Shown piece after piece: positions 5,451 to 10,097 of a stretch of DNA of 64,000 nt. A program made the translations under genes and the position numbers. The stretch's first letter is position 1. Every line of letters starts with the position of its first letter. The notes below the pieces were generated by a model that was not told the origin of the DNA, made no database searches, and was given only the letters and a program-made list of their open reading frames with translations. Source of the DNA: Escherichia coli (GTDB lineage Bacteria; Pseudomonadota; Gammaproteobacteria; Enterobacterales; Enterobacteriaceae); NCBI RefSeq assembly GCF_002854065.1, contig NZ_CP024147.1; one strand, given 5' to 3'.

Positions 5451-5520
5451 ATTTAATTCTTACGTAGCGTGTGTGGTTGACTACCCGTTAGCAAATAATC
5501 AAATAGCTAAAGCACTCATC

Positions 5521-5529
5521 GTGTTGTCC
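5521..5529. repeat. 9-bp target-site duplication GTGTTGTCC (left copy) of IS1 copy 1
   Basis: identical 9-mer at 5521..5529 and 6298..6306 immediately flanking the IS1 ends. Confidence 0.9.
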
Positions 5530-5544
5530 GGTAATGACTCCAAC

Positions 5545-6048
5545 TTATTGATAGTGTTTTATGTTCAGATAATGCCCGATGACTTTGTCATGCAGCTCCA
5601 CCGATTTTGAGAACGACAGCGACTTCCGTCCCAGCCGTGCCAGGTGCTGCCTCAGATTCAGGTTATGCCGCTCAATTCGCTGCGTATATCGCTTGCTGAT
5701 TACGTGCAGCTTTCCCTTCAGGCGGGATTCATACAGCGGCCAGCCATCCGTCATCCATATCACCACGTCAAAGGGTGACAGCAGGCTCATAAGACGCCCC
5801 AGCGTCGCCATAGTGCGTTCACCGAATACGTGCGCAACAACCGTCTTCCGGAGCCTGTCATACGCGTAAAACAGCCAGCGCTGGCGCGATTTAGCCCCGA
5901 CGTATCCCCACTGTTCGTCCATTTCCGCGCAGACGATGACGTCACTGCCCGGCTGTATGCGCGAGGTTACCGACTGCGGCCTGAGTTTTTTAAATGGCGG
6001 AAAATCGTGTTGAGGCCAACGCCCATAATGCGGGCGGTTGCCCGGCAT
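5545..6048 (-). CDS. insB: IS1 InsB frame (transposase made as InsAB' by -1 frameshift)
   Basis: 167-aa [19 protein letters not shown]... identical in both IS1 copies; overlaps insA in the -1 frame. Confidence 0.9.
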
Positions 6049-6242
6049 CCAACGCCATTCATGGCCATATCAATGATTTTCTGGTGCGTACCGGGTTGAG
6101 AAGCGGTGTAAGTGAACTGCAGTTGCCATGTTTTACGGCAGTGAGAGCAGAGATAGCGCTGATGTCCGGCAGTGCTTTTGCCGTTACGCACCACCCCGTC
6201 AGTAGCTGAACAGGAGGGACAGCTGATAGAAACAGAAGCCAC
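5967..6242 (-). CDS. insA: IS1 InsA (zinc-finger transposition inhibitor)
   Basis: 91-aa [42 protein letters not shown] with CxxC...CxxC. Confidence 0.9.
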
Positions 6243-6275
6243 TGGAGCACCTCAAAAACACCATCATACACTAAA

Positions 6276-7037
6276 TCAGTAAGTTGGCAGCATCACCGTG
6301 TTGTCCGTGTTCATACCGGTGTGCCTTTGACAACGGTACTCCTTAGAAACTCTCTTCGGACTGTTGCCGAAATGTTTGCGGAACGCATAAATAAAATAAG
6401 ATGTACTGGCATAACCACATTGTTCGGCAATTTTATTGACTGAACCTTCTACGCGTATCAAATTTTTTGCGTGCTGCATTCTGGCATCTAAAAGAATCTG
6501 TGAGAATGTCGTTTGCTCTTGCTTAAGTTTTTTCTTCAACAGGCTTTCACTGATGTACAGGCAGTCACAAATATCTTTCAGCTTCCATGGGTGCGCCAGC
6601 TTCATGTTGACAATATTTCTCACTTTCCCGGAAACGGATAGCACACCGTTAGTTAATAGTGTAATGAAACCTTTGCATGCGGCAAAAATAGACAGGCAAG
6701 AAAAAAGCAAAAGTTCTGAAAAATTATGATGATTGCGTTCTTCCGAGTTGAGATAAGCAATCATTTCATTAAGCAATCCAGTCGGTACATTAGAAGCACG
6801 TAAAAACTTCGCAGGAACAGGCACCGTCACTGTCTGGATGTTAGTGCATTGTAGATATTTTTTAATGGTATTTTCATTAAATCCGATTTCTTTAAAATGC
6901 CGCTCATAAGGTTCAAAATGCGTACGAACAGCGTTATCTACCATCAGGATCTCGCCGTCAGAGAAGGCGTAATCTTTATCTAAAATGTTAGCGTTGAAGG
7001 CATGATGAATAAATATAACAGAACAAACGAGCGACAT
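6276..7037 (-). CDS. ydeO: AraC-family acid-resistance regulator; last 6 codons and stop supplied by the IS1 terminus
   Basis: 253-aa ORF with C-terminal AraC HTH region; reading frame crosses the IS1 junction at 6297/6298 and ends ...NTVMLPTY inside the IS1 end. Confidence 0.85.
   Translation of the reverse strand: MSLVCSVIFIHHAFNANILDKDYAFSDGEILMVDNAVRTHFEPYERHFKEIGFNENTIKKYLQCTNIQTVTVPVPAKFLRASNVPTGLLNEMIAYLNSEERNHHNFSELLLFSCLSIFAACKGFITLLTNGVLSVSGKVRNIVNMKLAHPWKLKDICDCLYISESLLKKKLKQEQTTFSQILLDARMQHAKNLIRVEGSVNKIAEQCGYASTSYFIYAFRKHFGNSPKRVSKEYRCQRHTGMNTDNTVMLPTY
6298..6306. repeat. 9-bp target-site duplication GTGTTGTCC (right copy) of IS1 copy 1, inside ydeO coding sequence
   Basis: identical to 5521..5529. 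Confidence 0.9.
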
Positions 7038-7111: not shown

Positions 7112-7309
7112 TCAGTCTTGCAAACTATTGATAATGAAATGTGTAAGATCTCTTGCAATGCGACCCATTTCTGAAATGCCCAGCTGATCAATTGCCGAAA
7201 AAATGGCTATCAACGTAAGGGTCAGTAATAAGACAACCACAATTACAAACATGATTTCTTTATAGTTGTCTCTTTGCGTGATTTTGTTTTTCACTGTGGT
7301 CGAATGCAT
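7112..7309 (-). CDS. safA: small membrane protein connecting EvgS/EvgA to PhoQ/PhoP
   Basis: 65-aa ORF with one hydrophobic helix FVIVVVLLLTLTLIAIFSAI; immediately upstream of ydeO as in the safA-ydeO operon. Confidence 0.8.
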   Translation of the reverse strand: MHSTTVKNKITQRDNYKEIMFVIVVVLLLTLTLIAIFSAIDQLGISEMGRIARDLTHFIINSLQD

Positions 7310-7420
7310 TTCAAATATGTTTATTTAGCGGATAACGTTAAAAATCGTTAATCAGTATGCTTAATATAACAGGCTGGAGAAAAGAGGAAATAGGACTGGT
7401 GCTTCAGTACTGAGCGGAGT

Positions 7421-7438
7421 TTCTTACAGCTGTAGGCA
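7421..7438. promoter_or_regulatory. EvgA-box-like 18-bp motif TTCTTACAGCTGTAGGCA upstream of safA
   Basis: near-dyad motif, nearly identical to the one at 10080..10097 upstream of ydeP; resembles recalled EvgA box TTCPyTACA...TGTAPuGAA. Confidence 0.5.
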
Positions 7439-7556
7439 GAAGTTTATATCTTATAGTATGTAGTTTAATTTAATCCATGTGAGCAAATTGCGCGATAATA
7501 GTCAATGAGGAATTCTTCTGCTGTGCGGATGACAGCAGAAGAAATGAGAAGAGGCA

Positions 7557-9836
7557 TTAATTTGATGGTTCTAATTCAACCGGAATACTTTTATAGCCAG
7601 GAATGCCACTTAATGGATCGTGGTTATCAAGTGTTAGCATGTGATTCGATTCTGGAAAATAGGTCACCAGTGAGCGGTCAGCCATAGGGTAAATGACCAC
7701 TTTTAATCTATCCATGCGGCGTGAGCTGCGCTTACCGTCTGGCGTAAGCGCAATAAGATTAACTCTTTCGCCGTTTTTTACACGGCAAATTTTAGCTTGT
7801 TTAGCACTCATAAAGACCACATCTCGTTGACCGAATACCCCTCGATAACGATCATCCATACCATAAATCGTCGTGTTGTACTGATCGTGACTGCGTACTG
7901 TCGCCATGACCAGCTTACTGTTAAACGCTGAAGAGGGATCTTCTAACAGCCCTTTGCTGGTAATGAAATTAGCCTTACCTGACGGCGTCATCCAGCGCCT
8001 TTCAGCAGCTGCATTTATCAGGTGAAAACCTCCAGGATGTCGGATGCGCTGGTTATAATCGGCGAACTCTGGCAGCACAGCTTCAATGTCATTGCGAATG
8101 CGATCATAATCTTCCACCAGATACTCCCAGGCTACCACGCTCTGGGGTAGTGCTGCCTGCGCGATTCCCGCGACCACTGCACACTCTGATTTCAGCATTA
8201 CATCGGCGGGTTTTAACACGCCACGCGAGGCATGAATCATCGACATTGAATCCTCAACGGTTACCGCCTGCGCACCGCTTTTTTGCATGTCAATCTCGCT
8301 ACGTCCCAGAACCGGCAGAATATAGCTATGCCGTGCGGTCAGCAGATGAGAGCGGTTAAGCTTAGTGGCTACGTGTACCGCCAGATCTAATTGCGTTAAC
8401 GGTACAGCGCTCGCTTCCCGATCTGGCATTGCCAGTGCAAAGTTGCCCCCCATGCAGATCAATGCTCGAGCCTGCCCTGAACATATTGCTTGCATGCTGG
8501 CAATTGCAGCATGTCCAGGTGCTTGAGGTGGTGTGAAGCCATAGCGCTCACCCAGGCGAGCCAGAAACTCTGCAGACGGTTTCTCGGTGATACCGACGGT
8601 TCGGTCGCCCTGTACATTAGAGTGGCCACGTAGTGGGCAGATACCCGCACCAGGCTTGCCAATGTTACCTTTCATCAACAGCAGATTGACCAGTTGCTGT
8701 ACATTCTGGGTACCATGTTCGTGCTGAGTGATCCCCATTCCGTAACAGATAATGGTGCGTTCGGCAGCGGCATATGCATCAGCCAGTTCGGCGATTTGTG
8801 TCTGACTTAGTCCAGAAATACGTTCGATATCTTTCCACTCGGAATTGAGAACGTCACGGCGTAGCTCGTCAAAGCCGACGGTATGCGTTTGAATAAATTC
8901 GTCATCCAGCAATGAGGGCCGACCTGCGGCACTTGCAGCATCATCGCGCTCAATTAACAGGCGCATCATCCCCTTGAGCAACGCCATATCGCCACCAATG
9001 CGCACGTTGTAGTAGGCACTGGCCAACTGAGTCTCAGAGTTCGTCAGCATTTCAAACGGGTTTTGCGGTGCGGTAAATCGCTCCAGGCCACGTTCCTGTA
9101 GAGGATTGATGGCGATCATTTTCGCTCCCCGTTTCACTAAAGCGCGCAACGAAGTCAGCATGCGAGGGTGGTTTGTACCAGGGTTATGCCCAATGCAAAT
9201 GACTAAATCGCACTTCTCAAAGTCTTCCAGCAACACGGTCCCTTTACCTACACCGATACTCGCTGCCAAACCCACGCTTGTCGGTTCATGGCACATGTTG
9301 GAGCAGTCGGGAAAGTTATTGCTCCCGTATTCACGGGCAAAAAGCTGATAAAGAAAGGCAGCTTCATTGGAAGTGCGGCCCGAAGTATAGAATTCAACCT
9401 GATTGGGATCACTATAGCTTTGAAGGCGTGCGCCAATTTCATTGAAAGCTTGTTGCCAGCTTAATGGCTTGTAACAGTCGCTGACGGCATCATATTTCAA
9501 AGGCTGAGTGAGTCGCCCCGCAGCCTCAAGCTCGTGGTCTCCCCAGGTAAGTAATGATTGAACCGTATTCTCAGCAAAGAAAGAGGCGTTTACCTGCTTA
9601 TCCGTGACTTCCCAGGCGATTGCTTTTGCGCCGTTTTCACAAATGTCGAATGACGCACTGTGCTTAGGATCTGGCCATGCACAACCCGGACAGTCAAAGC
9701 CCTCTGGCTTATTCATGTCAAACATGGCAATAACATCCTGGCGTATATCCATCTGCTTACGTACTGCATTCGCTACGGATTTAACAGCACCCCAACCACC
9801 GGCAGCACCCTGGTAGGATTCAATTTTTTTCTTCAT
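7557..9836 (-). CDS. ydeP: molybdopterin-oxidoreductase-like acid-resistance protein
   Basis: 759-aa ORF; N-terminal Cys cluster CPGCAWPDP and formate-dehydrogenase-like composition. Confidence 0.85.
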
Positions 9837-10079
9837 CTACTTATCCTGTGTGGAAATGAATTATTAGGATTTGTAATAGCGATGATGCACAGTACATACA
9901 AAGGGATTATCGCCAACATGGATATATAAGAGTAGGGGACTACTCTCTTTCTATTTTTAATCTATTATCGTTAAACCATAGATTAAATACGATAAGGTAA
10001 GCATCATCTCTCATAGTGTTTAAATTAACATATTTTTCAATATAAAAAATAAGACTCTGGCTTCAATTGTGCGCGGATT

Positions 10080-10097
10080 TTCTTACAGGTGTAGGAT
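10080..10097. promoter_or_regulatory. EvgA-box-like 18-bp motif TTCTTACAGGTGTAGGAT upstream of ydeP
   Basis: shares TTCTTACAG-N-TGTAGG with the safA upstream motif; embedded between GCGCGGAT/ATCCGCGC inverted repeats. Confidence 0.5.

Follow-up and report, generated by a model that had tools for sequence, protein, structure and literature searches.

The locus between ydeP and safA raises the question of whether an 18-bp imperfect inverted repeat in front of safA is the operator through which EvgA directly switches on the safA-ydeO operon of Escherichia coli, and how the promoter that follows the repeat is laid out. If so, the repeat is the entry point of the cascade running from EvgA through YdeO to GadE, as well as of the connection from EvgS to PhoQ via SafA. 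In PMC9496106 (citing Itou et al. 2009), EvgA is reported to bind the safA-ydeO promoter region directly and to induce its expression, and according to PMC3720670 (citing Masuda & Church 2003), EvgA recognises inverted repeats at the targets that it controls directly. All directly regulated genes are reported to carry an EvgA site (PMC4283999), and an evgA mutant fails to induce ydeO (PMC4222967). Furthermore, a PsafA-gfp fusion serves as a reporter of EvgS/EvgA activity, and the safA promoter is described as subject to repression by PhoP and feedback by YdeO (bioRxiv 10.64898/2026.05.06.723403). EvgA binding and induction at this promoter were taken from this literature; the site itself and its surroundings were analysed here in a window of 64,000 nucleotides, which is the whole stretch of DNA under study.

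The box at safA and its match to the EvgA motif

The earlier note had located the motif TTCTTACAGCTGTAGGCA at 7421–7438 on the plus strand, and it was found there exactly. Read on the minus strand, i.e. in the sense of safA, the sequence is TGCCTACAGCTGTAAGAA, an 18-bp imperfect inverted repeat inside the 247-bp ydeP-safA intergenic region, between a terminator-like hairpin that follows ydeP and the safA gene. It lies 111 nt 5' of the safA ATG (120.5 nt when measured from its centre). The promoter-proximal half is a perfect TGTAAGAA, and the distal half, TGCCTACA, is weaker and imperfect. The box departs at one of 16 specified positions from TTCYTACA-NN-TGTARGAA, the inverted repeat that is also present upstream of other EvgA-activated operons, in keeping with the resemblance to the EvgA box that the earlier note had proposed. 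Identity with K-12 is 100% from 15 bp 5' of the box through the safA ATG.

The regions of K-12 reported as EvgA-activated were searched with the consensus TTCYTACANNTGTARGAA; the EvgA-box consensus is an inverted repeat of TTCPyTACA. Matches were obtained in the intergenic 5' DNA of emrK/evgA (TTCTTACGCCTGTAGGAT), frc (TTCTTACAACTGTAAGAA, a perfect match), yfdX (two sites) and yegR (TTCCTACATAAGTAGGAA). Two other matches, one inside mdtE near gadE and one with three mismatches inside ydeO, were treated as chance occurrences. A palindromised weight matrix was then computed from the five sites at emrK/evgA, frc, yfdX (two) and yegR, with no site taken from the ydeP-safA locus, and the matrix scan that the earlier note had put forward as a check was run over the window. 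The first and second ranks in 64 kb went to the boxes of ydeP (22.5 bits) and safA (21.0 bits) and the next-best site reached 11.4 bits, under a matrix that is partly circular in that its training sites were chosen with the consensus; the independent evidence is that these training sites sit upstream of exactly the reported EvgA targets. A score of 21.0 bits was reached in none of 150 Markov-1 simulated 64-kb sequences. The 18-mer itself, with up to three mismatches allowed, matched twice in 64 kb against an expectation of 0.03, and two matches were reached in 0 of 100 shuffles. A literature text search on the consensus string and on "EvgA box" found no paper giving the EvgA-box sequence. The equation of the published footprint with exactly these 18 bases rests on secondary citations, the consensus and the present analysis.

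The second motif copy, TTCTTACAGGTGTAGGAT, is located at 10080–10097, 243 nt 5' of the ydeP ATG; read on the minus strand, in the sense of the gene, it is ATCCTACACCTGTAAGAA. It constitutes the EvgA box for ydeP and is positioned as at safA. It had been claimed that the two motifs agree at 16 of 18 positions. The second copy is real, but the count in that register is 15 of 18, with three differences. Sixteen agreements are obtained once both 18-mers are moved one base to the left (TTTCTTACAG...), as well as with the K-12 ydeP allele TTCTTACAGGTGTAGGCT, and the higher count may reflect that allele. The slip leaves the substance of the claim intact. At window position 10096, the ydeP box ends in TGTAGGAT instead of the TGTAGGCT of K-12 (...GGAT versus ...GGCT). 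This A allele is one base nearer to the palindromic consensus than that of K-12, and it is shared by the divergent strain SCPM-O-B-8794.

Conservation and promoter architecture

The ydeP-safA intergenic region was found in 5373 of 5426 complete E. coli genomes at 80–100% identity, and the 36 nt around the safA box were present as a single copy in 5370 of the 5426. For a closer view, an alignment of eight strains was used, which included SCPM-O-B-8794, a lineage with only 76% identity across safA and the intergenic region. Within the box, 16 of 18 columns were invariant. The other two fell at the outer end of the weaker half-site and at a single position in the central spacer, where a dimeric operator ought to allow change. 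Among the 5370 genomes, the copies that diverged most were altered only at box positions 1–2 (gene sense), in the spacer and in the flanks. Judged from these alignments, the safA box is under visible purifying selection. Further islands invariant in the eight strains were ACTCCGCTCAG (the 11 nt that follow the box), GTCCTATTTC, CCTGnTATATTAAG and ACTGATTAACGAT, together with both arms of the hairpin after ydeP. In contigs representing one genome per species, no relatives of SafA were found and a search for YdeO returned only three E. coli-like contigs, so footprinting was confined to E. coli. SafA has likewise been reported as confined to E. coli and Shigella, in which it co-occurs with EvgS/EvgA (PMC9496106).

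Six EvgA-dependent promoters, namely those of safA, ydeP, emrK, frc, the proximal yfdX site and yegR, were aligned on the box in gene sense. A −10-like hexamer lay 52–53 nt 3' of the box in all six, with TAnnnT beginning at nt 53–54; every other offset gave fewer than five of six, and six of six was reached in none of 5000 shuffles. At safA, this element is a predicted extended −10, TGtTATATT, at 7363..7371 on the minus strand (TG at 7371–7370, hexamer at 7368–7363). Its counterpart at ydeP is TGtTAATTT at 10030–10022 on the same strand, with a predicted start at about 10015. In the 76%-identical lineage, the "n" of TGn is the sole change in the −10 elements of both safA and ydeP, a pattern typical of extended −10 elements. 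An alternative ydeP −10, TATATT, 35 nt 3' of the box, was discarded because the divergent lineage preserves TGnTAATTT and not this hexamer.

From this geometry we infer that safA transcription would start at about 7356 (A), which would give a 5' UTR of some 47 nt and place the box centre at about −73.5. The earlier note had regarded a motif far from the transcription start as an argument against its reading, and on the predicted geometry the box is not far from the start. A literature search retrieved no mapped safA start site. A simple −35/−10 scan of 7250–7600 found no consensus sigma-70 promoter, which is no evidence against a promoter because the scan demands a −35 match; the missing consensus promoter and the poor −35 fit an activator-dependent promoter.

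The DNA between the box and the −10 carries further position-locked elements. One of them, AGTCCTATT (7389..7397, minus strand), lies 24–32 nt 3' of the box, at about −41 to −33 on the predicted numbering, where a −35 hexamer would be expected. It is unlike TTGACA and invariant in the eight strains. The same offset is occupied by AGTCTTATT at ydeP, AATCCTATT at yegR and AGTCCTCTG at emrK, and TC..ATT is register-locked 26–32 nt 3' of the box in the box-aligned promoters. Nearer to the box, a CAnAA element (7408..7412, minus strand) is found 9–13 nt 3' of it, at about −56 to −52, within the ACTCCGCTCAG block that is invariant in the eight strains. Its C9 and A10 are present in six of the six aligned promoters and its A12 and A13 in five of the six, and it is possibly a contact for the alpha-CTD of RNA polymerase. 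The AGTCCTATT element was also considered as a third EvgA half-site and rejected, with a score of 1.7 bits (range 1–2) compared with 5.8–12.4 for real half-sites. When the half-site score was summed across promoters, the offset of this element was the best yet negative (p ~0.01).

As a tentative proposal, for which we would claim no great likelihood, the box might be no more than the upstream anchor in a rigid ~85-bp module, common to EvgA-dependent promoters, that comprises the box, CAnAA, TC(C/T)TATT in place of the −35, and the −10 hexamer. A module locked in register in this way suggests extra contacts between operator and core promoter, e.g. by additional weakly bound EvgA, as with BvgA at Pfha, or through a fixed docking site for the alpha-CTD. 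No description of such additional contacts at EvgA promoters was found in the literature searched. The quantified, register-locked geometry common to six EvgA promoters is a modest added value of this analysis.

Genes and insertion sequences around the box

The safA gene (7112..7309, minus strand; 65 aa) is the first of the operon according to the open-reading-frame map and the RefSeq annotation of matching genomes, and it is followed by ydeO (6276..7037, minus strand), whose last six codons have been replaced by IS1 sequence. Upstream, ydeP spans 7557–9836 on the minus strand (open-reading-frame map and annotation of matching E. coli genomes). The evgAS genes are ~0.9 Mb away in K-12 and lie outside the 64-kb window. 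SafA differs from its K-12 counterpart at five of 65 residues (A3S, S21F, A22V, S44G and G65D); since the promoter is 100% identical to that of K-12, the coding region has diverged more than the control region. Identification of the box confirms that the locus has the regulatory wiring of E. coli K-12.

Directly 3' of the ydeP stop codon, a hairpin with a perfect 12-bp stem and a weak U tract is found at 7513..7543 (minus strand). Its stem is part of the centroid fold, with a minimum free energy of −20.7 kcal/mol and z = −2.8, and a terminator scan did not call it, the T run being too short. It probably serves as a leaky terminator for ydeP and delimits the safA promoter region on the upstream side. 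Leakiness would explain why the locus is named "ydeP-safA-ydeO operon" in PMC11052181 and "safA-ydeO operon" in PMC9496106. The stems are invariant, while the loop (7525–7531) differs in the divergent strain: it reads CATCCGC in most strains (gene sense) and ACGGATG in the divergent one, with identical 12-bp arms. As ACGGATG is nearly the reverse complement of CATCCGC, the loop seems to have been inverted between its two arms.

Several smaller features were observed in the intergenic region. A TATAGT hexamer is present at 7452–7457 on the plus strand, opposite to safA and 13 nt beyond the box, and a cTTATAGT stands at an equal offset from the box on the evgA side of the emrK-evgA intergenic region. 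The hexamer could belong to an EvgA-linked promoter that points away from safA and runs antisense into the 3' end of ydeP, but divergent strains do not conserve it. The safA 5' UTR, as predicted, contains the direct repeat TTAACG-N4-TTAACG (gene sense, ~7351–7336). In addition, it has TGTTTA at 7318–7323 on the plus strand, which matches one PhoP half-site. Either element may be the site of the reported repression by PhoP (bioRxiv 10.64898/2026.05.06.723403).

A complete 768-bp IS1 is located at 5530–6297, inserted into the 3' end of ydeO and flanked by a 9-bp target duplication, GTGTTGTCC (direct repeats at 5521–5529 and 6298–6306). The insertion swaps the last six residues of YdeO from MNALAI to VMLPTY and leaves the length at 253 aa; the displaced tail of ydeO is still visible at 5501–5520. 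The ydeO-IS1 junction was found in 0 of 5426 complete E. coli genomes, so that the strain falls outside that set; it may be a Shigella. A second IS1 copy, at 20454–21221, was recognised from its terminal inverted repeats. The alteration of the last six codons of ydeO, which encodes a regulator driven by the safA-ydeO promoter in this strain, is a further addition of this work.

Competing readings and comparison with known systems

The safA box might in principle be a relic, i.e. a sequence that resembles the ydeP box solely as a result of promoter duplication and is not a working operator, and we consider this highly improbable. The similarity between the safA and ydeP promoters (7363–7420 versus 10022–10079) does extend well past the box, with 40 of 65 positions identical 3' of it, gap-free and strictly in register (mean 17.4 and maximum 32 in 20,000 shuffles; 11–24 in shifted registers). 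On the basis of these identities, the two promoters are probably duplicates of one EvgA promoter module, so that part of the similarity between the boxes could reflect common descent. However, descent and function are compatible, and the core of the box is invariant across the aligned E. coli, including the 76%-identical lineage, while neighbouring bases vary. Moreover, the unrelated promoters of emrK, frc, yfdX and yegR have the box at an equal distance from a −10-like element, and direct binding and EvgA-dependent induction have been reported (PMC9496106, PMC4222967).

It is just as hard to credit that the palindrome is the site of another NarL/FixJ-type regulator, e.g. one of the RcsB or GadE type, with EvgA control being indirect. 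Members of this family can have similar half-sites, since the core TTC(C/T)TA is common to the related BvgA, whose optimal site is TAAGAAATTTCCTA (PMC7250471). At safA, however, the T-rich ends face away from each other and the TTCTTA and TAGG hexamers are 6 bp apart, whereas those of BvgA abut centrally. The 8-2-8 arrangement is also found again at exactly those operons that are said to be direct targets of EvgA, and direct binding of EvgA at the safA-ydeO promoter is described in PMC9496106. Lastly, a functionless chance palindrome in AT-rich intergenic DNA, to which the loose consensus would lend itself (0.57 matches with up to three mismatches expected per 64 kb, and at least two in 13 of 100 shuffles), is effectively refuted by the absence of 21-bit scores from the simulated windows, by strong conservation and fixed promoter geometry, by the single mismatch, not three, in each of the safA and ydeP boxes, and by their placement in front of both EvgA-induced transcription units at the locus.

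The best explanation is therefore that 7421–7438 is the EvgA operator of the safA-ydeO promoter, and we hold this reading with high confidence. Motif match, conservation, fixed distance to the −10 and published direct binding agree on direct EvgA control of safA-ydeO, as the earlier note had proposed. The role of the box as an EvgA operator is already known, and its identification here adds no new biology.

Under this reading, mild acid causes EvgS to phosphorylate EvgA, the NarL/FixJ-type response regulator of the acid-sensing EvgS/EvgA two-component system. An EvgA dimer would then bind both inverted half-sites (TTCYTACA, with a 2-bp spacer), centred ~73.5 bp 5' of the predicted start, and the bound protein would recruit RNA polymerase, presumably in a class-I-like manner, to an extended −10 (TGtTATATT) promoter without a usable −35 hexamer. 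Of the two proteins made from the safA-ydeO transcript, SafA activates PhoQ, and YdeO activates gadE and the acid-resistance cascade.

In K-12, EvgA boxes have reportedly been described by Masuda & Church in 2003 and by Itou et al. in 2009 at ydeP, b1500 (safA)-ydeO, emrKY/evgAS, yegR, yfdX and frc (cited in PMC3720670, PMC9496106 and PMC4283999). The safA box shares the 8-2-8 inverted repeat and the distance to the −10-like element with the other five K-12 promoters. It does not differ from K-12 itself; the differences concern the allele of the ydeP box and the IS1 insertion in ydeO. NarL-type "7-2-7" operators consist of two inverted half-sites separated by a 2-bp gap, to which a phosphorylated FixJ/NarL-type regulator binds as a dimer. 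The two inverted half-sites and the 2-bp spacer are alike, whereas the half-site sequence and the regulon differ.

The BvgA promoters of Bordetella (Pfha and Pptx) share the half-site core TTC(C/T)TA with the box, and BvgA is the response regulator of the BvgS family, to which EvgS is related. They likewise have a high-affinity inverted repeat well 5' of a core promoter whose −35 is poor, and the primary site at Pfha is said to be centred further upstream, at −88.5. That primary site is TAAGAAATTTCCTA (PMC7250471), in which the half-sites abut as TAAGAAA/TTTCCTA, whereas at safA they are reversed and spaced as TTCTTA-N6-TAGGAA, an arrangement that sets the box apart from BvgA-type operators. 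The DNA between operator and core promoter is conserved and register-locked at the EvgA promoter, which would be compatible with additional weak contacts such as those of the weakly bound BvgA dimers at Pfha, but the best downstream element for additional EvgA dimers scores only 1–2 bits as a half-site here.
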